Assembly (NCBI GenBank): GCA_015711725.1
Contig: JACVIX010000001.1
Coordinates: 1-63,470, forward strand
Direction: 5' to 3'
Length of the DNA: 63,470 bases
From: Candidatus Geothermincola primus
Lineage (GTDB): Bacteria; Actinomycetota; Geothermincolia; Geothermincolales; Geothermincolaceae
Shown here: positions 2,009 to 42,917 of the stretch, in pieces
Position numbering within the stretch: the stretch's first letter is position 1
Layout of the letters: the number at the start of each line of letters is the position of its first letter
The notes under the pieces: model-generated
Databases searched by the model: none
What the model saw: the letters and a program-made list of their open reading frames with translations, nothing else
What the model was told of the DNA's origin: nothing
Translations under genes and position numbers: made by a program

Positions 2009-2465
2009 TTCCCTCTCCTCCAGTTTAGTACGCCGCTCCCTTTCAACTTAAAAATATCTTGGGGCAAGAAGCCACTAAAACATTAAGTCTATTTTGAAAG
2101 TAGAATATATCTCCCTCCTGATATGCGTAATTGCTTTGTAATTATTTATTTCACCCATTTAAACCATTTAAACGTATTTAAAATCTCAACGTGATTACAT
2201 AATGTATCCTTTTCGATTTAGTCCGTTCGGAAGCGCTAATGGTTAGACGTGTATGGCAGAGATTGTCTTAAGCTGGAGGCGTTATTCTCGATTGTTGAAA
2301 AAAACCGATCCTAAGTTGGAAAACCTGGAGTGAAGCGACCGCCAATAATTGTCGATACAAACATAGGATGGCAAATAAATCGTGAAAAGAGGAATAGGCA
2401 AAATTCACAACGTATATTTATTAGAAAGATTACGAAAACATCCGGTAATCCAGGGAGGAAGGCCT

Positions 2466-4538
2466 ATGCTCCAAGTAAAAAATGGAAATTTTTTCAAATA
2501 TTCAATTGCGATAATAGCGTTGGTAGCGCTATCATTCTTTCTTTCTCCGCCTGTTGCCATCTTTCCGTCGCCAGCAAGTCCCACGGGCTCATTGGCTCCC
2601 GAAGGGCTGCAGACGATCAAGCGTCCTCAAGACGCCGGCAAGAGGATCGCTTTGACCTGGAAGGCGGATCCCCAGACCTTCGGATATCGGGTATATAGAT
2701 CTGAAAATGAGGAAGGACCCTATGAGGCTATTGGAGGTAAGGCTGGAAACTCCATGCAAGACCTGCCCATTTTTTTAGATGAGAACGTAGAGGGCGGGAA
2801 GACATATTATTATCGGGTAGCGGTGGTTGATGAGGAATGGAATGAAGGACCCTTATGCGATCCTATCTCCGCTGAGCTGGACACGTCGGTGGTGGTTGCG
2901 GCAGGACCGAAAAGCATGACCATCTCCCTGCCCGAGCAGCGCATATACTTCTACGAAGGGGGACAGCTGATAAATATTTTGCGCTGTTCCACCGGGCTCT
3001 ACAACGCCACTCCCACTGGCTATTTCCGCATCCTTAACCATCTGGGAACCCACGGAGGGGTGGGGGGAGCGGTATGCGATTATTGGATGAGTTTTACCCC
3101 GAAACATGGGATACATGCCTGGCCAAAGACTTCCAAAGGTTATGAGCAGGGGCTGGGGGCTCCCGCGTCTCATGGTTGTGTTCGTCTGCATCCTCTGGAG
3201 GCTTACTGGCCTTATTATTGGGCTCCCGATGGCACCCCTTTGACCATTATAGGATACCGGATTTCTAATTATGTGATCTCGGGATGTCACGATTCCATTG
3301 GTTCTTCGACGTTATCCCAGGACTGGTATTTCGCTGAGGGATTCACGGTGGGCGCTTTCGAGACCTATATTCTTATGAATAATCCCGGCGATTCAAGCGT
3401 TCATGCTGACGTCAATTTTTTCTTAGAAGGAGGCGGGATAGTAACTCAGGGAGTCTGGATAGGTCCCCATTCCCGTTACACCCTGACGGTTGATGCTATT
3501 CCTCAGTTGGCGTGGAACGCCTTCTCCACCCATATTCATGCAGACGCCCCCATAGTGGCGGAAAGAGCTATGTATTTCGTCTACGGCGATAAGTCGGATG
3601 GAAGCTCCACTATCGGCTCTCCTACTCTTTCTCAGGACTGGTTCTTCGCGGAGGGATACACAGGAGGGGAGTTCGATACCTTTCTCACCCTGGCTAATCC
3701 TGGGGATACCGGCACAGATGTAACGGTGACCTTCATGTTAGAAAGTGGCCAGATCGTAACTTACAATTGCTGGATCGCTCCTTTTTCCCGTTATACCATC
3801 GGAGTGGATGGCATACCCGGAATGGCAAACGCGGCGTTTGCCACCCAGTTGCATGCTGAGGACGCCCCCATCGTGGCGGAAAGATCTGTATATTTTCGCA
3901 AACTCTATATAAAAGGGGGGCATACTTCGTTAGGCTCAACCACGCTCTCCGACTGGTGGTTTTTCGCCGAAGGATGTACAAGGCCTTTCTTCCAGAGCTA
4001 CCTAGTTTTAGGCAATCCGGACAACAATTCGGCAGCCGTTGACGTGGTATTTTATCTGCAGGAAACGTGTTTGATGTACAGTTACACCATAAATCCTCAC
4101 TCCCGGCTTACCCTGGACGTTAACTGGTTGCCCTATCTTTATGGTAGGGATATAGCTTTCGCCATCCATGCCAACCGCCCTATCGTTGCCGAGCGTGCCG
4201 TCTATTATGACCTGGATAGTCATCGGGGCGGATCGGCATCCATCGGCTCGACTATCTCTTCAAATACCTGGTATTTCGCCGAAGGATACACGGGAGATGC
4301 TTTTGATGCCTATCTCTGCATCGCCAATACCGATGTGGTCGTTGCCAATGTCCAGGTGAGGTTTCAGAGAAGCGACGGCGCTGTTTTCGACTATTTTTAC
4401 CAGATCATTCCTCAAAGAAGATTCACCATAGGGATTGATGGCCTCCCAGGTTTGGGTTCCGCCAGCTTCTCCATGACAGTGATATCAGACGTGCCCATAG
4501 TGGCAGAAAGGGAGATGTATTTCGTGATGACTCGATGA
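2466..4538 (+). CDS. secreted L,D-transpeptidase (signal/TM + FN3-like + YkuD) followed by four ~105-aa 'WYFAEG...VAER' repeats
   Basis: YkuD catalytic motif 'HGIHAW...SHGCVRLHP'. Hydrophobic N-terminus 'FFKYSIAIIALVALSFFL'. I prefer the ATG at 2466, preceded by GGGAGGAAGG, over the track's GTG at 2382. Four tandem repeats run from about 3295 to the end. Confidence 0.85.
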   Translation: MLQVKNGNFFKYSIAIIALVALSFFLSPPVAIFPSPASPTGSLAPEGLQTIKRPQDAGKRIALTWKADPQTFGYRVYRSENEEGPYEAIGGKAGNSMQDLPIFLDENVEGGKTYYYRVAVVDEEWNEGPLCDPISAELDTSVVVAAGPKSMTISLPEQRIYFYEGGQLINILRCSTGLYNATPTGYFRILNHLGTHGGVGGAVCDYWMSFTPKHGIHAWPKTSKGYEQGLGAPASHGCVRLHPLEAYWPYYWAPDGTPLTIIGYRISNYVISGCHDSIGSSTLSQDWYFAEGFTVGAFETYILMNNPGDSSVHADVNFFLEGGGIVTQGVWIGPHSRYTLTVDAIPQLAWNAFSTHIHADAPIVAERAMYFVYGDKSDGSSTIGSPTLSQDWFFAEGYTGGEFDTFLTLANPGDTGTDVTVTFMLESGQIVTYNCWIAPFSRYTIGVDGIPGMANAAFATQLHAEDAPIVAERSVYFRKLYIKGGHTSLGSTTLSDWWFFAEGCTRPFFQSYLVLGNPDNNSAAVDVVFYLQETCLMYSYTINPHSRLTLDVNWLPYLYGRDIAFAIHANRPIVAERAVYYDLDSHRGGSASIGSTISSNTWYFAEGYTGDAFDAYLCIANTDVVVANVQVRFQRSDGAVFDYFYQIIPQRRFTIGIDGLPGLGSASFSMTVISDVPIVAEREMYFVMTR

Positions 4539-25689: not shown

Positions 25690-28071
25690 ATGAAGATACA
25701 CTTATGTAGGTCGATAGCTTTAATAATCTCGTCCCTCTTGCTAATGAGCCTTTTGATGGTTGATTCCTCACATGTCCAAGCTGCCTTTACGGACATTTAT
25801 ATAGAGCCAGCTGCTATACAGCAGGCTATAGAATACGCGTGTTCCCGCGGTTATTTGGAGGGGAATCCCGATGGGACGTTCAAGCCCAGAGAATGGATTT
25901 CTAGAATCGATGCGGCTCGAGCGTTGGTAATGGTTTTTGGCCACGGGCAGGAGCAACCGGACCCCAACATTCATTTTCCGGACCTGCCTGACGAAGATGC
26001 CAGATTCCGCTGGGCTAACTTGGCGGTCAAGCACGCTTTAATGGACAGGCTTCCGGATGGAAGGTTTCTTCCCGAAGTGACGATATCGCTGGAGAGGCTA
26101 GCTATAGGCATTACCCATGGTTTAGGGCTGGATAGCGTGGCCACCAATATCCAGCGCATTGTTCCTCAAGCTCCATATTATGGAGGTTTCATGGTAGTGT
26201 TCATGGGACTACGTTTGAAGTATTACGAAAGGAACTACGCTTTTTCGGTGAAAATCTGGCCAACCGGAGGTTACCCACGGGGCAACATGGCTTATACTCT
26301 ACAAAGGATCGATTACCTTGAATCGTGGCGGAGAAATTACCTAATCTCCACTTTCACAGAAGAGAGATGTCAACCGCCTCAAGCCAATGCTGGTCAACAG
26401 ACCGCGCTCAACTACGGATTTGAACGGTTGGGTTCCCCCTATTTGTATGGAGGAGAATCGGAGGCGGAAGGTGGTTTTGACTGCTCGGGTTTCGTCTACA
26501 ATACCTTGAGCATGCGCATGGGTTATCCCATGAAAAGGGTGGCGGATGACCAAGCCCGGGACGAAAATTATCTTTCTATCAACCGAGCTTACCTCAAACC
26601 AGGTGACGCTATTTTTTTCTATGATGAGGCGGGAGGAGGCTCCACGGGACATGTTGGCCATGCGGGTATGTATGTGGGTAACGGAATTTTCATCCATTCC
26701 GCGGGTTCCAATGGAGGCGTGAGCCTGGATTGCCTGGACACCTCCAGTTATTACAGCACTCATCTGGCTTGGGGAAGGAGGGTGGTTGGCGGTCCCTATC
26801 GCGATCGATTCGAGGAATATCTCCTTTTATTCAACCCGGATGCCTCGTCCGCCAGTGTGCAGGTCCAATATATAAGCAAAAAAGAACCCCCATTCACCAG
26901 GACTTACACCGTCGCTCCTCGCAGCAGGTATACAATACGCGTTGACGACCAGGTTGATTACGACGAAGTATCTCTTAAGGTTACCGCGGACCGGGACATA
27001 GTGGCGGAGCGCGCCATGTACTATAGTTATATGGGAAAGATGCCTGGAGGCGAAGCTTCGCCAGGGGTCTCCATTCCCAGCCTTTCCTGGTATTTCTCCG
27101 AGGGGTACACTGTAGGGAGCTTCGATACCTGGCTTTTACTCTTTAATCCCTCGGATTCCGCGGCCCAAGTAAGGTGCCGTTATCTTCTAGAATCAAGTAA
27201 GGTAATCGAGCAGAATTACATGGTGTCTCCTGGAAGTAGAACCACCATCTCAGTGGACGGAGTGCCGGGAATGGAGGGGACGGGCGTTGCATTGCAGGTC
27301 GAGTCCACCAACGGGGTGGGAATCGTTGCCGAGCGAGTGATGTACTTCGACTATATGGGAAATAAAGGGGGTAGCGGAGGGATAGGGGTGAATGCACCGG
27401 CGGGGAAATGGTATCTGGCTGAGGGCTATACCGGCAGTGGGTTCGACACCTATCTCACATTGGCCAATCCATCTGAGGATCTCGCCAGAGTGCAGGCGGA
27501 TTTCCTGTTGGAAGGCCGCGATAGGGTCACCGAATATTTTGATGTCGCGCCCCATTCCAGGTTGACCGTGAAGGTAAATGAGATAGTGCCAAAAGCAAAT
27601 GTGGCTGTGGAAGTGGGGTCGCTCAATGGGGTAGGAATTGTGGCGGAGAGGGTCATGTACTTCAACTATGGCGGAAAGAGAGGGGGCCATGCCAGTGCCG
27701 GCGCCTCCACGCTATCCAGTGACTGGTTTTTCGCAGAGGGATACACCGGGGGCAGTTTCGATAATTATTTGGTTCTAGCCAATCCTTGGGAGGAACAGAC
27801 CGGGGTGGTCTGCAGGTTTTTCCGGGATGATGGGGTAATGGTGGAAAGAAATTATAGGGTGGCGCCGCAAAGTCGCTTCACCATAAAAGTGGATGACATC
27901 GGCGGCTTGGAGTCCGCCGCCTACGCTATCCGTGTGTCTTCCGACCGGCCGGTTATAGCGGAACGCGCCTCCTATTTCTCTTATCGAGGATGGGATGGGG
28001 GAAGCGATGCTAAGGGCGTGGCCGCTCCTCGACGAGAATGGTATTTCGCGGAGGGATACACAGGGGGCTAG
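25690..28071 (+). CDS. SLH-anchored NlpC/P60 cell-wall hydrolase followed by 'WYFAEG...VAER' repeats
   Basis: Signal peptide, then two SLH-like segments ('GYLEGNPDGTFKP', 'LPDGRFLP'). NlpC/P60 motifs are 'GGFDCSGFVYN' and 'GHAGMYVGNGIFIHS'. Four repeat copies start at about 26787. Confidence 0.85.
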   Translation: MKIHLCRSIALIISSLLLMSLLMVDSSHVQAAFTDIYIEPAAIQQAIEYACSRGYLEGNPDGTFKPREWISRIDAARALVMVFGHGQEQPDPNIHFPDLPDEDARFRWANLAVKHALMDRLPDGRFLPEVTISLERLAIGITHGLGLDSVATNIQRIVPQAPYYGGFMVVFMGLRLKYYERNYAFSVKIWPTGGYPRGNMAYTLQRIDYLESWRRNYLISTFTEERCQPPQANAGQQTALNYGFERLGSPYLYGGESEAEGGFDCSGFVYNTLSMRMGYPMKRVADDQARDENYLSINRAYLKPGDAIFFYDEAGGGSTGHVGHAGMYVGNGIFIHSAGSNGGVSLDCLDTSSYYSTHLAWGRRVVGGPYRDRFEEYLLLFNPDASSASVQVQYISKKEPPFTRTYTVAPRSRYTIRVDDQVDYDEVSLKVTADRDIVAERAMYYSYMGKMPGGEASPGVSIPSLSWYFSEGYTVGSFDTWLLLFNPSDSAAQVRCRYLLESSKVIEQNYMVSPGSRTTISVDGVPGMEGTGVALQVESTNGVGIVAERVMYFDYMGNKGGSGGIGVNAPAGKWYLAEGYTGSGFDTYLTLANPSEDLARVQADFLLEGRDRVTEYFDVAPHSRLTVKVNEIVPKANVAVEVGSLNGVGIVAERVMYFNYGGKRGGHASAGASTLSSDWFFAEGYTGGSFDNYLVLANPWEEQTGVVCRFFRDDGVMVERNYRVAPQSRFTIKVDDIGGLESAAYAIRVSSDRPVIAERASYFSYRGWDGGSDAKGVAAPRREWYFAEGYTGG

Positions 28072-32398: not shown

Positions 32399-35300
32399 TC
32401 AAGCCCTCATCAGCTCTCCCATCATAGGCCCCAGCAGAGGGGGCATGACTCTCTCCATCACCCCGGGCAGCATGCGGGGCATCAGTTCGCGCATAGATGG
32501 GGACATCTCTGGCATCTTCTGTTCTAGGATGGGAAGCATGCGGGGTAGCATCAGTTTGAGCATGAGAGGCAACAGGCGCGAAGCCATAGAGGGTCCCACT
32601 TTGGTCATCGCCCAAACGATAGTCCTCTTGACGGGCGAAGGTAGAGCGCGCATTCCTTTTATGATGGCTGAGCTGGGCCCAGGAAGAGATAGCAGGAACT
32701 CTTCCATGAAGTCTGCCATACCCTGAGGAGTCATTAGTCTAATCATCTTGTCGAAAACGGCCCAGTTCCTGGCCACCTCGGCAGTGGGGTCCCCTAAAGG
32801 ATAACCCAAAGCCTCTGAAACCACGGAGGCAAAATCGCGAACTGGCATTTCGCTTCCTGCGGCTTGGCTCCATACTCTCAATTGAAATTCGCAGCAAGGG
32901 CAGGTTGTGACTATGGCTTGAGCTTCGGTCTGTCGAGCTTCCTCAAGCCTTTTGGAGGCGATAGCCTCAGAAGTGGGCTTGGTTTCGCCGATAAGTGTGA
33001 GAACGCTACCACAACAGAGGGCGTCTTCACGGTTATGTTCCATCTCCACTAACGTGATCCCCGGAATGGCTTTCAGCACTTCCCTGGGCGCTTCGTAGAT
33101 ACCTCCGTGGCGTCCAATGTGGCAAGGATCGTGCCATGTGATCTTCATGGGAATATTATTTACAAATTGTAATTTATTTTCCGCAAGAAGTTCTGCGGCA
33201 ACCTCCGAAATATGTTTTACCTCCACCTCCCATTCGATTCCAAGCTTCTCGGCCCATTGTTTATAGTGGTGGGATAAAGTGACCCAGCAACCCGGGCATG
33301 AGGCTATCAAAGTCTTGATCCCCCTGCCCTTTATTTCCTCTATATTCTTGCGCACAGCTTTTTCGAACAGGTCCCATTTTCCGCTCATAAGAAAAGGAAT
33401 GCCGCAACAAGTCTCCTTCTCCCCTAGATAAACGAATTCCAAACCTCCCTCCTTAAGTATGCGTACAGAGCCTTGGGCGATATCCTTCTCCACATAGGAA
33501 GCAGTGCAACCTGCCCAGTAACCCAAAGATCCTTCCTTGAGAACATCTATATCCTCGGGGAGCCAGGAGTCTCGATTCTCGGAAAAACTTGCCCAGATGT
33601 TGCTCTCCATATCGTAGGAAGCGCCCATCATCTCGAAAGGAGGAAATGTCTTAAATCTGCCGGAAGCGATTAGTTCGCCCCGCATGGATTCCCATAGGGA
33701 TTCAATGGGCAAATCGGTCTGACATACGTTGTCACATTTTTTACACGTTGTACATAAAAGAAAGGTTCTTGCCATCTTTTCGTTTAAGGGAAGCCTGCCC
33801 TGGCTATATCTCTTGAGGTAATACCATTTGCCGCGAGGGGAAGCGCTTTCCCAACCCCTGCCAGAGTAGAGAGTACATTCTTGGACGCAGTATCCACATT
33901 GAGCGCAGGTGTAAGCGGCGGTTTCCAACTCTTGAGGCAATTTTTTCCTCAAAGAGGGGATATTCTTGGGAAGAAGCCAGCCCATTCTCCAACCTAGCGG
34001 GGCCAGAGGTGTCGCAAAGGACAGGAAATAGTCTAAAAGGCGGACCTTAGCCGGTCTGTGCTCGTCAACTAGTAATTTGCCTGGATTCATAATTCCCGAA
34101 GGATCATGGTCTATTCGATAGCGGCGCAGAAATTCGCTTTTTGTTTTGCCCCACCGTTCCTCAAAGCTAGGCGCAAAGTAAAGACCGATCCCGTAAGGCT
34201 TTCCCCCTCGCTTTCGCACCAGGCTTAGAAAATGCAAGGATTTGGCGAATTCAAGGGTGAACGCAGGAGACCTGGTGTCCGAAGGGATAAAACCTAGAAG
34301 AATCGCCCATCCGTCGGAGGTAAGCGTAGCCTCGATGCTCATATCGGGAATGGACTTCTCCGTGGCGGCGAAAACGGTTGAAAGATACTCCCAAGGTATC
34401 ATGGCTTCGGCGGGGATAAGGGAGGGGCCCAGCTTGCGAAGGCGCATGGGATTAAACCTCTCTTCCCATTCGTGGAGAGCCTGTTTCTGAGGAAGTTGTT
34501 TCCCCCCATGGCGTGAAGCGATTCTTACGAGATGCCTCTCCGTCTCTGGTGAGGGATTTTCCAACACCACAAGTGCTAAATAGGTAACGGGAAGGGGGTC
34601 TTCGGCATCAAGCTGGTTTTTAATTTTAGCTAATTGGGGGTTGAGAATTTGTAGGTGGTAGATGTCAAGGTCAGTGCCCAGTTCTCGCATAAAGGACTGG
34701 ATTCCCAGATAGCCCTTGAATGAGAAGAGTAAGGGGATCTCCTCGCCCGCTTTACGAACCTTAAGCCTTACTGCGGTGATGATCCCGGTGATGCCCTCCG
34801 CACCGTAGTATTTCCAAAGGTCACTCCCTCCAATTTCTTGTAGATTTCCCTCGGGAGAAACTACTTCCAGGCTTTCCAGGTTGCTTTCCAGGGAACCGTA
34901 ACTATAACTCCCAATGCCATAGCCACCCTCAGCCACCCAGCCCCCCACTGTTGAGGAAGGAGCACTGGAGGGGTAGACGCGCAGGGCAAAGCCCTCTTTT
35001 CCAAGGGCTGTTTCTAGATGCTTCCAGATTACCCCTGCATCCACCAGTGCGGTTTCACTTTGGGGATCGATTTCCCTAATTGTGTTCAGCGAGGTGAGGT
35101 CGATTACCATGCCCCCGCTGGAGGGCAACGCTCCACCATAGCCGCTGGTAGCGGAGCCTCTAGGAACAATAGGAATTCCTCGGCTGCGAGCTAGCTTTAC
35201 CAGGTGAATTATTTCTTGGACGCCCCTGACCTTTACCACCACTTCCGCCTGGGGTCGTAACAGTTTTTCTATGATGCTTGGAAATTCCCCCATATCATGG

Positions 35301-35446
35301 GAATAAAGGTCCAGCTCAATATCATCCCAGGTCACTCGGTCGCCAAGATCTTGTTTGAGAGATACCTTGAATTGTTTGGTAACTTTTCCAGCCAATATCT
35401 CCACCTCCAAAAACTTCGCGCTAGCGAGCCTTCGCCTTTCCATCAT
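32399..35446 (-). CDS. fused FAD-linked oxidase (GlcD-like) + 2x[4Fe-4S] + 2xCCG (GlcF/HdrD-like) oxidoreductase with a Met-rich C-terminal extension
   Basis: 'PRGSATSGYGGALP' marks the FAD_binding_4 domain. 'CAQCGYCVQEC' and 'CTTCKKCDNVC' are the cluster motifs. 'CCGIPF' and 'CCGSVL' are the CCG motifs. An alternative TTG start at 35395 follows GGAGGTG. Confidence 0.85.
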   Translation of the reverse strand: MMERRRLASAKFLEVEILAGKVTKQFKVSLKQDLGDRVTWDDIELDLYSHDMGEFPSIIEKLLRPQAEVVVKVRGVQEIIHLVKLARSRGIPIVPRGSATSGYGGALPSSGGMVIDLTSLNTIREIDPQSETALVDAGVIWKHLETALGKEGFALRVYPSSAPSSTVGGWVAEGGYGIGSYSYGSLESNLESLEVVSPEGNLQEIGGSDLWKYYGAEGITGIITAVRLKVRKAGEEIPLLFSFKGYLGIQSFMRELGTDLDIYHLQILNPQLAKIKNQLDAEDPLPVTYLALVVLENPSPETERHLVRIASRHGGKQLPQKQALHEWEERFNPMRLRKLGPSLIPAEAMIPWEYLSTVFAATEKSIPDMSIEATLTSDGWAILLGFIPSDTRSPAFTLEFAKSLHFLSLVRKRGGKPYGIGLYFAPSFEERWGKTKSEFLRRYRIDHDPSGIMNPGKLLVDEHRPAKVRLLDYFLSFATPLAPLGWRMGWLLPKNIPSLRKKLPQELETAAYTCAQCGYCVQECTLYSGRGWESASPRGKWYYLKRYSQGRLPLNEKMARTFLLCTTCKKCDNVCQTDLPIESLWESMRGELIASGRFKTFPPFEMMGASYDMESNIWASFSENRDSWLPEDIDVLKEGSLGYWAGCTASYVEKDIAQGSVRILKEGGLEFVYLGEKETCCGIPFLMSGKWDLFEKAVRKNIEEIKGRGIKTLIASCPGCWVTLSHHYKQWAEKLGIEWEVEVKHISEVAAELLAENKLQFVNNIPMKITWHDPCHIGRHGGIYEAPREVLKAIPGITLVEMEHNREDALCCGSVLTLIGETKPTSEAIASKRLEEARQTEAQAIVTTCPCCEFQLRVWSQAAGSEMPVRDFASVVSEALGYPLGDPTAEVARNWAVFDKMIRLMTPQGMADFMEEFLLSLPGPSSAIIKGMRALPSPVKRTIVWAMTKVGPSMASRLLPLMLKLMLPRMLPILEQKMPEMSPSMRELMPRMLPGVMERVMPPLLGPMMGELMRA

Positions 35447-36117: not shown

Positions 36118-37896
36118 ATGCGGCTGGAAGTGGTCTTGATGAGAAAGATTTTGTATTTATGGATGATAAGTTTGGCATTCCTTCTTGTTTTCTCTCTCGC
36201 CCCGTATGGTTTGGCGGACGCTTATGAAAAACCGCAGATTGACATTATAGAGCCGGCGAGGGCGCCAATAGGAAGCGAGATCACTATCAATGGCGCCCAC
36301 TTTGGCGATATGCGAGAGGGATCTCGCGTAGTGTTTGGCTCTGTAGAAGCTACACAGTATATCCGCTGGTCGGATTCTCAAATAAAAGTGATTGTGCCTT
36401 ATGGGTCATATCCGGATAGCCAGTTGCAAGTTAAGGTCATAACCCCTGGGGGAAGTTCTTATGGGGCCAGATTCGAGCTGGAGCCCCGCGCTATGGTCCT
36501 GGCCGAAGGTTTCACAGGTAAAGGTTTCCAAGAATATATAATACTGGGCAATCCTCAAGCTTTCGAGGTTAAGGTTAAATTACTATATATCTTCGCGGAC
36601 GGCACGTATATGGAAAGGGGCATGATAGTTCCCCCCCAATCCAGGGTAACCGTCGACGTGAACAGGGATGTGGGCGAGGAAGAGGAAGTATCTGCATTGA
36701 TTTTCTCAGATATCTATATTGTGGTGGAACGGCCTATCTACTTCGATTACCGGGGATGGACAGGAGGACACAATATTGTAGCAGGACGCAAAGCCAGCAA
36801 AACTTGGTATTTCGCGGAGGGATCTACTGAGCCAGGATTCGATGAATACTTGGCGGTTCTCAACCCCACGGAGAAAGAGGCCAATTTGGTCTTCCGTTTT
36901 CAGATAGAGGACGCGGGAGAAATTTTCCGTTACGGGAGCGTGCCCGCCTATTCACGGAAGACATTCAAATTAAACGATCTGCTGGGTTCGGGATGCCGAG
37001 CTTCATTGGCCTTAAAATCGGACCAATTCGTTGTGGCAGAGAGAAGCATGTACTTCGGCCACGAAGACAGTCGGAGCGGTGGCCATTGCGAAATGGGTTT
37101 ACCGGGATTTCCCAGTTCAGGACCTTTTTCCTACTACTTCGCTGAGGGCAGCACTTTCGGCGGCTTCGATGAATATCTGATATTACAAAACCCCGATTCA
37201 GCTATTCCAGTGGTGGTGGATGTGACCTATAGGTTCCGGGCGGGCCAGGGGGACCCAATTCGTAAGCAGTATCGGTTGGAGCCAGGGCAGAGACGCACTA
37301 TCTTCTTGCCCGATGATGTGGGGAGAGGCAAGGATGTCTCTGTTGCGCTGCAATCGGATTCACCATTCGTCGCGGAACGCTCTATCTTCTATCGATATGA
37401 TTTTTCCGATATTAGTGTATATGGTGGAGATTGCATCGTCGGTGCCCGGAAAACTTCCCTCCAATGGTACTTCTCCGAGGGTTTTACCGGGCCGGATTTC
37501 CACGAATGGCTGTCACTTTTCAATCCCGGAGAAGAGGATTCCCTAGTGGAAGTCACCTATTTCACTCCATCGGGAGTTTTACATCCCGCGAGAATCACTG
37601 TTCCCGCAGGAAGTAGGGAGACTTTTATGGTGAATGACCATGCGGGCAGAAACATCTTGCTCTCCTGCCAGATTAGAGTCATTTCTGGGCCGGGTATCGT
37701 GGCGGAAAGACCCATGTATTTCCGATTATCCCAAACTGAGGATGGAGATACGGCGGTTGAAGGGGGACATACTTCGCTGGGCGATGTCCCCTATGCCGGC
37801 GATGCCCTTGAAGATTACACTTCCAACTGTTGCAGTAATCTAATGGAAGCCCTAAGTCCCTTCTTTCAGGAAAAGGCTCGGAGGTTATGGAAGTAA
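36118..37896 (+). CDS. secreted IPT/TIG-domain protein followed by four 'YFAEG...VAER' repeats
   Basis: Signal peptide 'ILYLWMISLAFLLVFSLAP'. The IPT/TIG-like segment is 'PQIDIIEPARAPIGSEITINGAHFG...VKVITPGG'. Repeats span about 36481-37770. An alternative start is at 36139. Confidence 0.8.
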   Translation: MRLEVVLMRKILYLWMISLAFLLVFSLAPYGLADAYEKPQIDIIEPARAPIGSEITINGAHFGDMREGSRVVFGSVEATQYIRWSDSQIKVIVPYGSYPDSQLQVKVITPGGSSYGARFELEPRAMVLAEGFTGKGFQEYIILGNPQAFEVKVKLLYIFADGTYMERGMIVPPQSRVTVDVNRDVGEEEEVSALIFSDIYIVVERPIYFDYRGWTGGHNIVAGRKASKTWYFAEGSTEPGFDEYLAVLNPTEKEANLVFRFQIEDAGEIFRYGSVPAYSRKTFKLNDLLGSGCRASLALKSDQFVVAERSMYFGHEDSRSGGHCEMGLPGFPSSGPFSYYFAEGSTFGGFDEYLILQNPDSAIPVVVDVTYRFRAGQGDPIRKQYRLEPGQRRTIFLPDDVGRGKDVSVALQSDSPFVAERSIFYRYDFSDISVYGGDCIVGARKTSLQWYFSEGFTGPDFHEWLSLFNPGEEDSLVEVTYFTPSGVLHPARITVPAGSRETFMVNDHAGRNILLSCQIRVISGPGIVAERPMYFRLSQTEDGDTAVEGGHTSLGDVPYAGDALEDYTSNCCSNLMEALSPFFQEKARRLWK

Positions 37897-37922
37897 CTTA
37901 ATAGTCTAATGAAATTAAACAG

Positions 37923-37948
37923 AAGGGCACGGTTAAAACCGTGCCCTT
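37923..37948. terminator. bidirectional hairpin between convergent genes
   Basis: AAGGGCACGG-TTAAAA-CCGTGCCCTT, a perfect 10-bp stem, between the stops at 37896 (+) and 37992 (-). The T-tracts are weak. Confidence 0.5.
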
Positions 37949-37991
37949 CGTATTCACGCCAAGCCTCTAAAAGTTTTGAGTAAGGCTTAAA

Positions 37992-39194
37992 CTACAGCCC
38001 CAATATAGCCACGCTGCATACGTTATTGGTGGGAACGCCCCCTAAATTATGGGTAAGGCCTAGCTCGGCGTTCTTTACCAGGCGATCCTCTGGCCAGCGA
38101 CGCAGTAACTGATTGTACATCTCGTAGATCATGCGCAGGCCCGAGGCGCCGATAGGATGACCGAAACACTTCAGGCCTCCGTCCACCTGGCAAGGCACTC
38201 CGCCGTCCAGGTCGAAGAACCCATTGAGCACGTCGTCTACCGCGCCCCCCTCTGGGGATATGTGTAAGTCTTCCATGGTCACCAGCTCGGTGATGGAGAA
38301 GCAGTCGTGTACCTCCATCATGGAGATCTCCTTACGGGGGTCCTTTATCCCTGCTTCTTGGTATGCCCGCTGGGAGGCTAACCTGGTGGTAGCCACATAG
38401 GAACCGTCCCATTTGGTATAGCCGGCCTCTTCTCCAGAAGATACCGCTATCTGCAACGCCTTAACCTTAACCATCTCCTCGTTGGGTTTGATCTTGCGGA
38501 AGATTTCCGGGGTAGTGACGATGGCCATGGCCGCACCGTCGCTCACACCACAACAGTCGAAGAGCCCCAATGGATAGGCGATCATAGGGGCGCCGGCGAT
38601 CTGCTCTTTGGATATCGCTTTACGGAGATGGGCTTTGGGGTTCTTAGCCCCGTTTTGGTGGCTCTTCCAGGAGACATGGGTCATGGCCTCTTTTATTTTT
38701 TCCATGGGGATGCCTGTGCGGGCGGAGTAGCCCGTGGCCAACTGCGCGAACATCCCCGGCGCGGTGGCATTAGGTCCGATCATCACCATCAACTGCCCGA
38801 AGGCTGGGGAATTGGGTAAACCTCCATATCCCGTGTCTTTCAGCTTCTCCACTCCCATGGCAAGAGCGATGTCGCAAGCCCCAGAGGCCACCGCATAGAC
38901 CGCTCCGCGGAAAGATTCCGTCCCCGAAGCGCAGAAATTCTCGCATCTGGTTACCGGTATCATGGGAAGGTGCAGAACGCTGGAAACGTAAGTGCCACCC
39001 TTTCCGATGTTCACTTCATCGATATGACTGCCCAGCCATGCTGCCTGAATATCTTTCTTCTCGATTTGGGCATCTTCCAAGCACTCCTTGAACGCCTCCA
39101 CCAGCAGGTCGCTGGAGTCTGCCTCGAAACGTTCCCCAAACTTGGTGCATCCCATGCCCAGGATGACTACCTTATCTTTTATTCCCTCTGCCAT
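37992..39194 (-). CDS. thiolase, archaeal/SCP-x-like type (acetyl-CoA C-acyltransferase family)
   Basis: The catalytic Cys is in 'RCENFCASGTESF'. C-terminal 'VHDCFSI' and 'GGLKCFGHPIGASG' are present. The ATG directly follows the upstream TAA (TAAATG), with GGAGGAGGTG inside the upstream gene. Confidence 0.85.
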   Translation of the reverse strand: MAEGIKDKVVILGMGCTKFGERFEADSSDLLVEAFKECLEDAQIEKKDIQAAWLGSHIDEVNIGKGGTYVSSVLHLPMIPVTRCENFCASGTESFRGAVYAVASGACDIALAMGVEKLKDTGYGGLPNSPAFGQLMVMIGPNATAPGMFAQLATGYSARTGIPMEKIKEAMTHVSWKSHQNGAKNPKAHLRKAISKEQIAGAPMIAYPLGLFDCCGVSDGAAMAIVTTPEIFRKIKPNEEMVKVKALQIAVSSGEEAGYTKWDGSYVATTRLASQRAYQEAGIKDPRKEISMMEVHDCFSITELVTMEDLHISPEGGAVDDVLNGFFDLDGGVPCQVDGGLKCFGHPIGASGLRMIYEMYNQLLRRWPEDRLVKNAELGLTHNLGGVPTNNVCSVAILGL

Positions 39195-40655
39195 TTATGA
39201 CACCTCCTCCATTACTGGGACCGCCTTCCAGAAATAGAAGGTGATATCCCTCTTGGGGTCGTAGTATTTGATTCGGAAGCTAAATTCCACCGGTTTGCCC
39301 ACTGCCAGGTCCTCCAGAGTGCAGTCGGTGAAGTCCATCAGGGTACGCCCTCCGCCGTTAAAGTTCACGTTGCCGTAGATGGCTGGAGGGTTGATGGAGG
39401 CGGCCAGCAGGTCCGAGGTGAAGGTGAAGATGGTTCCGCCTTTGTCCGCAATATAAACTCGGTCCATCTCATCGATGGCGCCGCAATCCGGGTTGACGCA
39501 AATGCGCTGGGGTGGCCATTGCTGGGTGCCGCACTTACGACAGACCGTTCCCTCCAATCCTAGGATTGCCTTATGTGCTCTCCATTCCAGCGACCAGCGG
39601 GTCACGAAGTCTTCTTCGCCGCGTAAGCCGGTATCCGCGGGAGCCATATCACGCCATACTAGGTATTTCTGGTAATTATCCAATTCCGCCCTTCTGGCCA
39701 GTGATTTGGACACACGCGCGCGATCCTGTAATTTGGTGATATTATCGGTTACCTCGAAATAAATAGCGTCGCATCCATTTCCGTAGCTGACCAGCAGTAT
39801 CTTATCTCCCGGATTTACTTCTTCTAGCGCCTTGGCGAGCATTAGCAGGGCATGGGTCGCTCCGGAATCGCCTACCGTGGTCACCATATCATCCTGGACC
39901 TTTTCCGGTTCAATTCCTAATTTCGCCCCGATGCTCTTGCGAGCGCCTCCGTAATAACAGGGATAGACCACTTTGGCGAAGTCTCCCGGGGCCACGCCAT
40001 ATTTATTGCAAAGCCCTTCGATGGCTTGGGGTATGAACTGAGCGTAACCGAAGTCTCTTATCCACCGCTCTTCCCACTGTCGGTCGAATTTTGACCATGC
40101 TCCCCTCATGTGGTCCACAAAGTCGTGTGTAACCGAATAAGACCCTTTGTATTCGGCGATTACGTCGGTATCTGAAACCAACATGGCCGCACCAGCGTCG
40201 CCAAAGAACATCTCCTGAACCGAGCCCATCTTGCCCAAACGACTATCGCCAGCGCATACTATCGCATTGGAGCCGCTTCCCGCTGATACGAACTCGATGG
40301 CGGAGAGCAAGGCACTGGTTCCTGCTTTCAGGGAACCACCGAAATCCGCCGACCGGATGTCGTCCCGAGCGCAAAGAGCTCCAGCCACGATGCCTGAGTT
40401 CTGCCTCTCTTTATATGGAGCGGTGGTAGAGGCGAAGTAAACCGCATCCAGGCTTTGGCGGTCGAAACCTTTCAAGCAGTTAATACCAGCGGCTACCGCC
40501 ATGGTTAACGAATCCTCGTCGAAATTGCAGACCGCCTTCTCCCCCCTGGCGTTCATGATCAGGGCAGGGTTTAACCAACCCATAGCTCCAAAGATGATCA
40601 TTTTGTTAAGCCGGTAGCGGGGCACATAGCCTCCGTAAGAACTTATACCTACCAT
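39195..40655 (-). CDS. HMG-CoA-synthase-like domain (catalytic residues apparently substituted) fused to a DUF35 Zn-ribbon/OB-fold domain
   Basis: The N-terminal 'GISSYGGYVPRYRL', 'FDEDSLTMAVAAG' and 'LKAGTSAL' align with archaeal HMGCS as I recall it. The C-terminal 'CRKCGTQQWPPQRICVNPDCG' plus an OB-like tail is DUF35-like. Confidence 0.8.
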   Translation of the reverse strand: MVGISSYGGYVPRYRLNKMIIFGAMGWLNPALIMNARGEKAVCNFDEDSLTMAVAAGINCLKGFDRQSLDAVYFASTTAPYKERQNSGIVAGALCARDDIRSADFGGSLKAGTSALLSAIEFVSAGSGSNAIVCAGDSRLGKMGSVQEMFFGDAGAAMLVSDTDVIAEYKGSYSVTHDFVDHMRGAWSKFDRQWEERWIRDFGYAQFIPQAIEGLCNKYGVAPGDFAKVVYPCYYGGARKSIGAKLGIEPEKVQDDMVTTVGDSGATHALLMLAKALEEVNPGDKILLVSYGNGCDAIYFEVTDNITKLQDRARVSKSLARRAELDNYQKYLVWRDMAPADTGLRGEEDFVTRWSLEWRAHKAILGLEGTVCRKCGTQQWPPQRICVNPDCGAIDEMDRVYIADKGGTIFTFTSDLLAASINPPAIYGNVNFNGGGRTLMDFTDCTLEDLAVGKPVEFSFRIKYYDPKRDITFYFWKAVPVMEEVS

Positions 40656-40725
40656 TTCATTACTCCCTCCTTTTCTTCTAGATAATCACTCTCCGATCCC
40701 TTTTTGCATATGTTACTGAAGACGT

Positions 40726-41061
40726 TTATGCGAAACTTACTTCATAAAAGTGGGGATATATCCGTCTTAGTTCTTTCTCTATATCTTTCTTCTCGCTTTC
40801 CTCGACGATGCGCTCAACCTCCGATACCCAGAGGCCATTGGGAGTTTGGCGGTCTTTAAGAGAGAGGATATATCCGGGCACGAAAATAAATCCTAGTCCT
40901 CCAGATCCGCAACAAGAAGTCTCCACTACAGCCATCTTTACTTCGTAAAGTACCCTTCGGCCATTATATTCTAACACATCTTCTTCAAGAACCGTATAGT
41001 ATCCGGCTATGCTACGGACCTCTTCACCTATCTTTTGATGTACGTGCTCAAATTTGTTCAT
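40726..41061 (-). CDS. hypothetical 111-aa protein with a 'SCCGSGG' motif
   Basis: Clean ORF 70 nt upstream of the HMGCS-like gene on the same strand. No family recognised. Confidence 0.5.
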   Translation of the reverse strand: MNKFEHVHQKIGEEVRSIAGYYTVLEEDVLEYNGRRVLYEVKMAVVETSCCGSGGLGFIFVPGYILSLKDRQTPNGLWVSEVERIVEESEKKDIEKELRRIYPHFYEVSFA

Positions 41062-41255: not shown

Positions 41256-42917
41256 CTATTGCTGCGGCGATAAGGCCCCCTCGGTAAATGTGCAATTGGG
41301 ATCCCAAAGTAGCCATTCCTCTATTCCCAGGTCGTAACAGGCTTGAATCTGTGCCTTCACCTCTTTGGGGCCGTAATTTATTTTGAGGGAAAAGTCCTGC
41401 AGCCATGGGCGCAGTTTGCAACCGGTTCCCTCTATTTTCTTCTTAAAGTCCACCAAGCTCTTATACACGGTCTCGTAAGGGTTTGCCTCGGGAACGCGGA
41501 TATTGTATTCCCCCAAATGATAGTGGGAAGGGTAGACCATGGGGGATAAGTAATCCACGGAGGACGCGATGGCGGTCACATCTTGGCCAATGCCCATACT
41601 TCCTTGACCGGAGGCGGTCAAACCGAAGAGATCGATGGACAACACCACCCCCAAGGGCTTTAGGTTCTCCGCGAGGAACCTACAGAAGTCGGTGATGACT
41701 TCCTCTTTAGCCCTACCATCGTTGTGAGGGAATACACAGGTGGTAGTATCTCCATCGGAGGGAAAACGCACATAGTCGAATTGGATCTCGTCGAACCCGT
41801 TAGCAGCCGCTTCTTTAGCCAGATCCAGGATATAATTCCATACCTCCTTGCTGTAAGGGTCCAGCCATTGCCCGTTGCCCCAAGGTTTCCCGCGCTTGTC
41901 TTGAACCGCCAAATCAGGCCTTTTTTTGGCCAGGACGGGGTCTTTAAAACAGACGATGCGGGCTATCGTATATATGTCTTTATACCAGCATTTATCCATA
42001 ACCTTACCCAGGTCAATTCCCCCTTTGGTCATATCCAACCCGAGTTGGTTAGCTAATTCTACGGAGCTGTCATAACCCACTCGGCCGGATTCGTCTTTGG
42101 TGTCTATCTCTAAAGAGTTAAGTTCAGTTCTCTCTACCAATGAAACTAAGTTGGCGAAGAGCTTACTGTCGGCGGCGACCCATATGGATACGTGCACTCC
42201 TTTTATCTTGGGAATTGGCGTGGTCTTTAAGGAAATCTGCTGGTGGTTACCTGCCACGTCTGTAGCTTCTAAGTTAACCATGGGATAGTCATAGCGGTTT
42301 ACTATGAAGCTGAATAGACCTTCCCTATCAAAAGAAATTTGTTTACCTTCCAGTTTTAACGAAACCGCTTCCTCTACCCTTCCTTTTATTGCAGTTATAC
42401 CGTCATCGCGCACCTCCATCTGTTCAATAGTTATCTGAGGAGGCGTGGTGTCCACCATGAAATCGCTTCTTTTCTCGCATTTTCCTTTATAGACAACTTC
42501 CAGGCGATGAACTCCGTCTTTAATGTCTACCTTACCGGTGATCTCCTGAGGCTGTTCCATATTCATTTCTGCGGTACGGTCCTCGCCATCTATGAGGATG
42601 GATAAGAATGAAGGCTCATATTTCTGCCCGATGTCAATTTTCACAGACACTGGGTTGGATGTTATCACCGCTCTGTTAGAGGGTTCTATCTTCCTTATCA
42701 GAGGGGAGCGTAGGACGATAATCAGCAGAATTATAAGAAATATTATGGCGGCGAGAATGCCTAGATTTAACCAGCCCTTTCTGGTAATGCGGTATCTTCT
42801 TTTGAATTTGGGTTGCGTTTTCTTGGCGACTAGCTTATGGGAGACTGCGCCGGTCATCCGGCGTACCCTCCGTTTTCTAGAGAAGATTCTCCTTCGGTCA
42901 ACCCTGCTGGCGTACAT
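41256..42917 (-). CDS. membrane-anchored putative glycoside hydrolase (DUF4015/COG1306-like TIM barrel)
   Basis: N-terminal TM 'LGILAAIIFLIILLIIVL'. 'GFDEIQFDYVRFP' resembles the DUF4015 family signature from memory. An alternative start is at 42857. Confidence 0.65.
   Translation of the reverse strand: MYASRVDRRRIFSRKRRVRRMTGAVSHKLVAKKTQPKFKRRYRITRKGWLNLGILAAIIFLIILLIIVLRSPLIRKIEPSNRAVITSNPVSVKIDIGQKYEPSFLSILIDGEDRTAEMNMEQPQEITGKVDIKDGVHRLEVVYKGKCEKRSDFMVDTTPPQITIEQMEVRDDGITAIKGRVEEAVSLKLEGKQISFDREGLFSFIVNRYDYPMVNLEATDVAGNHQQISLKTTPIPKIKGVHVSIWVAADSKLFANLVSLVERTELNSLEIDTKDESGRVGYDSSVELANQLGLDMTKGGIDLGKVMDKCWYKDIYTIARIVCFKDPVLAKKRPDLAVQDKRGKPWGNGQWLDPYSKEVWNYILDLAKEAAANGFDEIQFDYVRFPSDGDTTTCVFPHNDGRAKEEVITDFCRFLAENLKPLGVVLSIDLFGLTASGQGSMGIGQDVTAIASSVDYLSPMVYPSHYHLGEYNIRVPEANPYETVYKSLVDFKKKIEGTGCKLRPWLQDFSLKINYGPKEVKAQIQACYDLGIEEWLLWDPNCTFTEGALSPQQ

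Follow-up and report, generated by a model that had tools for sequence, protein, structure and literature searches.

The window analysed here is a stretch of 63,470 nt from Candidatus Geothermincola primus (contig JACVIX010000001.1, positions 1-63,470), and all coordinates below count within it. On its minus strand lie two adjoining open reading frames (ORFs). The first (39195-40655) encodes a 486-aa fusion of a domain resembling 3-hydroxy-3-methylglutaryl-coenzyme A (HMG-CoA) synthase (HMGCS) with a DUF35 module, and the second (37992-39194) encodes a 400-aa thiolase. With the gene of a 111-aa orphan protein in front of them, they would form a small operon for a bacterial thiolase complex of the ACAT/HMGS-DUF35 type, in which the HMGCS-like part is predicted to be catalytically dead. 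The features of the locus, all on the minus strand, are as follows:

40726-41061, minus strand: conserved orphan protein of 111 aa, probably the first gene of the operon (ORF)
40663-40670, minus strand: Shine-Dalgarno-like GGAGGGAG, 7 nt 5' of the start codon of the fusion gene (sequence reading)
39663-40655, minus strand: N-terminal HMGCS/PhlA-like thiolase-fold domain of the fusion, aa 1-331 (phmmer against the PDB, tetrad mapping, Foldseek)
39576-39662, minus strand: interdomain linker of the fusion, aa 332-360, modelled with low confidence and probably flexible (AlphaFold2 predicted local distance difference test score [pLDDT] <50)
39195-39575, minus strand: C-terminal DUF35 module of the fusion, aa 361-486 plus stop codon, with zinc ribbon and OB fold (Pfam, match to 6esq_E)
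39203-39210, minus strand: Shine-Dalgarno sequence of the thiolase, GGAGGAGG, within the 3' end of the fusion gene (sequence reading)
37992-39194, minus strand: archaeal/SCP2-type thiolase of 400 aa (NCBIfam PRK06157), the predicted sole catalytic subunit (NF004810, PDB match, motifs)
37922-37949, minus strand: terminator-like hairpin with a 12-bp stem, 8 G-C pairs and a T-rich tail (consensus scan)

An earlier sequence-only reading had reported both ORFs at these coordinates, and all the motifs that it quoted (GYVPRYRL, DEDSLTMAV, FASTTAPYKERQ, DFGGSLKAGT, GDAGAAMLV, VVYPCYYGG and ENFCASGT) were found in the translations. It had also described a TAAATG junction with the Shine-Dalgarno sequence inside the upstream gene; the junction reads GGAGGAGG-tgtca-TAA-ATG, and the fusion stop codon (39195-39197) directly abuts the thiolase start codon (39192-39194). 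Since stop and start abut, translational coupling of the two genes is suggested. The 111-aa ORF lies 70 bp upstream of the fusion gene on the same strand, and a leader containing GGAGGGAG precedes the fusion gene. The hairpin begins 43 nt past the thiolase stop codon and likely marks the end of the operon, although it was called by a consensus scan only and the site count in the region was not above shuffled expectation. A promoter scan upstream of the 111-aa ORF yielded chance-level matches only.

Pfam domains and split PDB matches placed the HMGCS-like and DUF35 parts in a single polypeptide, as had been claimed. The fusion matched ACP_syn_III_C (aa 219-295), zf-ChsH2 (aa 367-393) and OB_ChsH2_C (aa 405-461), the last with 20.7 bits, under the gathering score of 27.1. 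The zinc ribbon is rubredoxin-like, with cysteines C372, C375, C386 and C391. When searched against the PDB with phmmer, aa 2-335 matched PhlA (9skh_A, 3e-40, 141.7 bits; 5m3k_A, 7e-35, 124 bits), the HMGCS of the archaeal thiolase/HMGCS/DUF35 complex (6esq_I, 1.3e-30, 109.9 bits) and MucA (9vbo_A, 1.3e-14), and aa 357-483 matched the DUF35 chain of the archaeal complex (6esq_E, E 9.6e-10). The AlphaFold2 model of the fusion had a pLDDT of 77 and a predicted template modelling score of 0.83, with the linker disordered. The top Foldseek matches of the N-terminal domain were PhlA (8.8e-27), archaeal HMGCS (TM 0.85) and MucA, that is, the scaffold or HMGS subunits of three solved complexes, with PhlA first.

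A HMMER alignment of the fusion with the HMGCS of the M. thermolithotrophicus complex (6esq_I) was rebuilt with residue numbers and recovered the published positions of the catalytic tetrad. All four residues are replaced in the fusion: Glu82 by Thr77, Cys114 by Leu109, His238 by Pro232 and Asn270 by Asp263. An independent MAFFT alignment of 150 family representatives with MtHMGCS and PhlA gave the same residues at the tetrad positions. The loss of the three catalytic residues noted in the sequence-only reading was thereby borne out, with Glu to Thr and Cys to Leu exact. Its claim that His is lost also held, whereas the replacement that it named, Tyr, was off by one residue, since His238 aligns to Pro232 and Tyr231 adjoins it. 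The difference is immaterial because FAKVVYPCYYGGARK contains no His anywhere. The fourth loss, Asn to Asp, had been missed and is exactly the change seen in PhlA.

The family survey extended this result beyond the window. After clustering at 50%, none of the 150 representatives carried Cys at the nucleophile column, and none carried the E-C-H-N tetrad. Over the 129 full-length representatives, the columns of C114, H238 and N270 fell between the 52nd and 69th percentile of variability, which is median or more variable, and the four cysteines of the zinc ribbon were 91-97% conserved across the same diverse set and invariant in close homologs. Because Cys and tetrad are absent from these representatives, the former Cys, His and Asn columns vary and the zinc-ribbon cysteines are kept, the inactive state of the HMGCS-like domain is old and family-wide, with a former active site free of catalytic constraint and a DUF35 module under constraint.

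We rejected the reading in which the fusion still acts as an HMG-CoA synthase, or as some other condensing enzyme, through shifted or alternative residues and the pair starts a mevalonate-type pathway; of the readings considered here, this one has next to no likelihood. The fold is intact and Cys233 adjoins the former His position, which would suit such an enzyme. However, in two independent alignments the whole tetrad is occupied by noncatalytic residues, Leu sits at the nucleophile elbow in a column where the family survey found no Cys, and the former catalytic columns are unconstrained. The NCBIfam HMGCS models match the fusion, but all under cutoff (PRK04262, 220.7 vs. 244; TIGR00748, 165.5 vs. 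353.35; TIGR01835, 48.6 vs. 360). An archaeal complex with four PhlA-type substitutions makes no HMG-CoA, and neither does a natural tetrad-less fusion from Pseudomonas fluorescens with its thiolase partner (PMC12960953). As the sequence-only reading had stated for the neighbourhood, no HMG-CoA reductase or other mevalonate-pathway gene was found among the nonoverlapped ORFs of at least 150 aa in the 63-kb window; the same set held no polyketide synthase (PKS), nonribosomal peptide synthetase (NRPS) or beta-oxidation genes.

The partner thiolase matched NCBIfam model NF004810 (PRK06157) with 649.3 bits against a cutoff of 403, and the partner thiolase of a Bacillota relative matched it with 640.6 bits. 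Its best PDB match was the thiolase of the archaeal complex (6esq_A, 8.9e-52, 179 bits), in agreement with its earlier description as archaeal-type, followed by SCP2-type thiolases and BbsB (7pxp_C, E 2.4e-40). PhlC was matched with 4.6e-23 (85 bits) over the C-terminal part only, and the match to MucB was weak (55 bits). The catalytic Cys and the His/Cys-His motifs were confirmed as C88-A-S, H296-D-C298-F and G345-H346-P, and C-A-S, H-D-C-F and G-H-P were identical in 16/16 cognate partner thiolases of the bacterial loci in the alignment. In some relatives, a second thiolase-like paralog lies 5-6 kb downstream of the pair (L011:15519-16673; L025:14876-16117). Neither the nucleophile Cys nor the histidines of HDCF and GHP are present in these paralogs, which may be further noncatalytic thiolase-fold proteins.

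The N-terminal domain of the fusion finds its best solved match in the acyltransferases PhlACB (PpATase, CsATase; 5M3K/5MG5, 9SKH) and, to a lesser degree, MucABC (SmaATase; 9VBO/9VBT), which are heteromers in which a dead HMGS-fold subunit and DUF35 assemble with a catalytic subunit of thiolase fold. In PhlACB, PhlA is the counterpart of the HMGCS subunit without its Cys and Glu, Cys88 of PhlC alone is catalytic, and PhlB is the DUF35 protein (Pavkov-Keller et al., 2018, PMC6392133). MucABC was described by Liao et al. (Nat Commun, 2026, PMC12960953), and in both systems catalysis is carried out by the thiolase-fold subunit only. The three parts are separate polypeptides there, whereas the HMGS-like and DUF35 parts are fused in the window.

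These similarities raise the idea that the window pair is a Friedel-Crafts C-acyltransferase like PhlACB or MucABC, either CoA-independent or acetyl-CoA-dependent, which acetylates a small-molecule acceptor in secondary metabolism. The N-terminal domain is nearer to PhlA than to any true HMGCS by bit score, PhlA tops the Foldseek matches, and a dead HMGS part and a DUF35 module are common to both. The thiolase tells otherwise. Friedel-Crafts enzymes are set apart by loss of the HDxF motif (PMC12960953), and the thiolase subunits of PhlACB and MucABC have lost HDxF and gained acceptor-binding residues, whereas the window thiolase keeps HDCF at 296-299 and is much more like archaeal ACAT than PhlC or MucB by the scores given above. 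The phl genes form a type III PKS cluster and the muc genes an NRPS-PKS cluster; the window holds no biosynthetic cluster. We regard a Friedel-Crafts role as highly improbable.

The closest likeness is to a class that Liao et al. mined from bacterial genomes. They found 1,030 HMGS-ACAT-DUF35 loci, 1,001 of them without secondary-metabolism neighbours, and assayed one member, PfACAT/HMGS-DUF35 of P. fluorescens (Pf), in which the HMGS part is fused to DUF35 and lacks E-C-H-N while the ACAT retains CxS, HDxF and GHx (PMC12960953). Given acetyl-CoA, the Pf complex did not form acetoacetyl-CoA or HMG-CoA; it did cleave acetoacetyl-CoA, and the H294Y change in the HDxF motif of its ACAT abolished this cleavage (PMC12960953). 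The authors called the class an "evolutionary intermediate," without a defined pathway (PMC12960953). The window pair shares with the Pf type an HMGS-like and a DUF35 part in one E-C-H-N-less polypeptide, a thiolase with CxS, HDxF and GHx retained, and co-localised genes with no PKS/NRPS neighbours. It differs in its host, an uncultured Geothermincolia-type actinomycetote, and in the genes added in that lineage, namely the 111-aa orphan gene and, in relatives, a gene for a B12-binding radical-SAM enzyme; the text of PMC12960953 mentions neither gene.

Judged by sequence, the window pair shows every feature of the Pf type, and the loss of HDxF that marks the Phl/Muc type is absent. Because of this combination, we consider the pair a further member of an already described class rather than a new arrangement, closer by these features to Pf, Phl and Muc than to BbsAB or Ltp2-ChsH2. 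The comparison with Ltp2-ChsH2 and BbsAB in the sequence-only reading is therefore superseded by PhlA/PhlC/PhlB, MucABC and the fused PfACAT/HMGS-DUF35. The novelty that it implied was not upheld either, since the closest relatives, Phl, Muc and the characterised Pf fusion, were already known, one member of a very widespread class having been assayed in 2026 (PMC12960953).

The archaeal thiolase/HMGCS/DUF35 complex has three modules homologous to the window pair, with adjacent genes and thiolase motifs identical in type. There, an active HMGCS (E82, C114, H238, N270) feeds the mevalonate pathway by channelling acetoacetyl-CoA to HMG-CoA, whereas in the window the four residues are replaced, the DUF35 module is fused and no mevalonate genes lie nearby. 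The proposal of an active thiolase with a dead HMGCS-fold/DUF35 scaffold, made in the sequence-only reading, is supported by the replaced tetrad, by the conserved thiolase and zinc-ribbon residues and by the absence of HMG-CoA formation in the Pf pair (PMC12960953).

We consider it likely, by homology to the solved complexes and to the assayed Pf pair, that the fusion scaffolds the thiolase in a heteromeric complex that carries out reversible thiolysis of 3-ketoacyl-CoA. The 486-aa fusion would be the noncatalytic structural partner, with its HMGCS-fold domain stripped of the tetrad and the zinc ribbon and OB fold of its DUF35 module intact. As in the archaeal, PhlACB and MucABC assemblies, it would probably hold thiolase dimers in the heteromer and help form the CoA-binding region. 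All chemistry would then reside in the thiolase, where Cys88 would be acylated and the HDCF loop (His296/Cys298) and His346 would provide acid/base catalysis and the oxyanion hole. In the predicted reaction, a 3-ketoacyl-CoA (at least acetoacetyl-CoA) would be reversibly cleaved by thiolysis or formed by Claisen condensation, and no HMG-CoA would be made.

At E<=1e-10, a word-indexed search with the fusion returned more than 3,600 homologs. The best 120 of these were all about 486 aa long and 64-96% identical, came from Actinomycetota (Candidatus Solincola, Geothermincolia, Anoxymicrobium), Bacillota and Chloroflexota metagenome-assembled genomes (MAGs), and were mostly labelled "HMG-CoA synthase (family protein)." With a cutoff of E<=1e-30, an exhaustive search of 1.84 billion representatives gave 584 clusters. 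Nearly all of the best 150 representatives keep the fusion; most of them, down to 33% identity, are full-length at 463-503 aa, and 129 fall within 440-520 aa. Named family members were also found in Deltaproteobacteria and Sphingomonas (39% identity in the latter), so that the family extends into the Proteobacteria. One 723-aa protein (P0268), in which ATP-grasp and molybdopterin-binding domains but no DUF35 follow an HMGS-like N-terminus, was set aside as probably either a chimeric gene call or an unrelated architecture.

The nearest genome loci, at 68-76% identity, belonged to Candidatus Solincola and other Geothermincolia-type Actinomycetota MAGs. The thiolase gene lay directly downstream of the fusion gene in 26 of 27 related loci, the remaining one being a 1.4-kb fragment, and the same order was seen in Bacillota and Sphingomonas members. 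With more than 3,600 homologs of the fusion and the thiolase downstream in nearly every locus, the pairing is far beyond chance. In the comparison of loci, ORF clusters C4, C7, C8, C13 and C14 looked like long antisense or low-complexity ORFs and were disregarded.

The pathway in which the pair works was approached through the gene neighbourhoods of its relatives. In Bacillota relatives (65% identity), the genes form an operon of a short-chain dehydrogenase/reductase (SDR), MaoC (MFE-2 hydratase-2), fusion and thiolase (L031:6202-10664; also L032 and L033). The Sphingomonas relative (L030:2739-15446) lies in a cluster with acyl-CoA/AMP ligase, acyl-CoA dehydrogenase (ACAD), enoyl-CoA hydratase (ECH), MaoC, SDR, NMO and CoA-transferase genes. 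In addition, three single polypeptides join the pseudo-HMGS-DUF35 core to a C-terminal SDR, to SDR plus SCP2, or to two SCP2 domains (P0172, 911 aa; P0173, 722 aa; P0180, 800 aa), and these fusions are Rosetta-stone links to MFE-2/SCPx-type acyl-CoA metabolism. Because relatives carry SDR/MaoC operons, SDR/SCP2 fusions and the Sphingomonas acyl-CoA cluster, the family appears tied to 3-ketoacyl-CoA chemistry, in either direction. These contexts suggest a module for (R)-specific, MFE-2-like beta-oxidation or its reverse, with the complex acting at the thiolase step.

The condensing direction has its own model. The fatty-acid synthase assembly of S. acidocaldarius consists of KT/DUF35, an SDR reductase and a MaoC dehydratase (bioRxiv 10.1101/2024.07.05.601840). 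The archaeal thiolase/DUF35 docks the (R)-specific SDR ketoacyl-CoA reductase and MaoC dehydratase, which pull an unfavourable Claisen condensation forward. The window pair could be part of a bacterial counterpart of this acyl carrier protein (ACP)-independent synthase, with the pseudo-HMGCS::DUF35 fusion as docking platform. The SDR-MaoC-fusion-thiolase operon of the Bacillota relatives and the members that join the pseudo-HMGS-DUF35 core to SDR, with or without SCP2, resemble the archaeal assembly, and the ancestral archaeal complex runs in the condensing direction. However, the archaeal assembly has no HMGS-fold module, and SDR or MaoC genes are not adjacent in the window. The Pf complex showed thiolysis only, with no detectable acetoacetyl-CoA from acetyl-CoA, in an assay without a pulling enzyme (PMC12960953), and the Sphingomonas context, with its CoA ligase, ACAD and CoA-transferase, looks catabolic. 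Moreover, the SDR/MaoC/SCP2-thiolase set is an MFE-2/SCPx-type (R)-specific beta-oxidation set, a degradative one, and equally the set of the archaeal KT/DUF35-SDR-MaoC synthase. We consider this condensing role unlikely.

A broader reading covers both directions. The pseudo-HMGCS::DUF35 fusion would be no mere relic of evolution but a docking platform that unites the thiolase, an (R)-specific SDR and MaoC into an ACP-independent machine for acyl-CoA elongation or degradation, a bacterial counterpart of the archaeal fatty-acid synthase, with the 111-aa orphan as a lineage-specific extra subunit in the Geothermincolia-like lineage. We put it forward tentatively, as possible but doubtful.

Also weighed was a reading in which the pair is specialised, as a thiolase or a retro-aldolase, for a CoA ester of bulky aryl or steroid type. 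BbsAB (benzoylsuccinyl-CoA thiolase) and Ltp2-ChsH2 (steroid aldolase) likewise pair a DUF35 module with an SCP2-type thiolase-fold enzyme, BbsB is a clear homolog of the window thiolase, and the SCP2 lipid-binding domains fused to some family members hint at hydrophobic substrates. On the other hand, the BbsB NCBIfam model gave 145.4 bits against a cutoff of 750, the 63-kb window contains no bbs, steroid or aromatic-degradation genes that would provide a matching pathway context, and BbsA and ChsH2 have no HMGS-fold domain. The window thiolase keeps its nucleophile Cys, which Ltp2-type aldolases are not known to carry. Such a specialisation seems improbable. Literature searches on Geothermincolia/Solincola thiolases, and on the fusion in the context of anaerobic degradation, yielded no relevant paper.

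Several observations weigh against the reading of the fusion as a purely structural partner in a thiolase complex of the Pf type. Over the 129 full-length representatives, the Thr that replaces Glu is conserved at 84%, and many residues of the pocket region are invariant among close homologs; the dead HMGCS pocket may conceivably retain a residual ligand-binding or regulatory role. No SDR, MaoC, ACAD or ECH genes adjoin the pair in the window, and the pathway context comes from relatives. Orthology with the Pf pair is inferred from shared defining features. Finally, the reading gives no account of the role of the 111-aa protein.

The 111-aa protein had no match in Pfam or NCBIfam, and its family comprises 49 clusters only, all named "hypothetical." The family alignment showed invariant residues H8, C50-C51-G52, G55 and G63-Y64 ("TSCCGxGG"). 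Its AlphaFold2 model had a pLDDT of 94; Foldseek found no fold relative in the PDB (best E 0.078, TMq 0.32), and a profile search against PDB sequences found none either (best E 0.12). The gene adjoins the fusion gene in about 20 of 27 loci. The linkage is kept at one locus where the order has changed to fusion-thiolase-small (L029), and in another the gene also lies upstream of the fusion (L028). In the Actinomycetota-type lineage, the 111-aa gene belongs to the same unit as the fusion-thiolase pair.

A gene for a B12-binding radical-SAM enzyme (about 518 aa, cluster C2) directly precedes the small ORF in 17 loci (e.g., L006:5935-7491), which gives most Actinomycetota relatives the order radical-SAM-small-fusion-thiolase. 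The best NCBIfam match of this enzyme was HpnJ-like, with 121 bits against a cutoff of 577. The window lacks this gene and has a DUF4015 glycosyl-hydrolase-like gene (41256-42917) in its place. Under the docking-platform reading, the 111-aa protein might bind metal or have redox activity, perhaps in a functional link with the radical-SAM enzyme encoded next to it in the relatives; it is a small new lead.

For annotation, the family matters because thousands of its bacterial proteins are publicly labelled "HMG-CoA synthase," yet, judging from their residues and from the assayed counterparts, they would be unable to make HMG-CoA. A mevalonate pathway inferred from such proteins in uncultured anaerobes (Geothermincolia, Bacillota and Desulfobacterota MAGs) would be wrong. 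The gene contexts instead give a concrete and testable hypothesis, in which the complex is the thiolase module of a pathway that resembles (R)-specific beta-oxidation or its reverse. It is based on the SDR-MaoC-fusion-thiolase operons, the SDR/SCP2 fusions, the Sphingomonas catabolic cluster and the strong conservation down to 33% identity.

Elsewhere, the window contains housekeeping and envelope genes (rho, prfA, prmC, transaldolase, pabAB, biotin ligase, and DUF5719, SLH and YkuD proteins). The bin at 38001-40000, which lies within the fusion-thiolase pair, has the highest G+C of the 2-kb bins in the window (0.551 vs. about 0.47-0.50 around it), and pairs at 70-71% identity were found in MAGs labelled Syntrophomonadaceae and Desulfovibrio (L010, L015); together, these may reflect horizontal transfer, mis-binning or simply strong conservation. 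At 32399-35446 (minus strand), a single 1015-aa polypeptide, similar to a fused oxidoreductase of the GlcD/GlcF type, contains a FAD_binding_4 FAD-linked oxidase, a 4Fe-4S dicluster and two CCG domains, and relatives carry separate FAD-oxidase, CCG/Fe-S and electron-transfer flavoprotein (ETF) alpha/beta genes near the thiolase pair. Three large, probably secreted proteins on the plus strand (2382-4538, 25690-28071 and 36118-37896) have a DUF5719 module in common, combined with YkuD (L,D-transpeptidase), with SLH and NlpC/P60, or with a TIG domain, and they look like a lineage-specific cell-envelope family.

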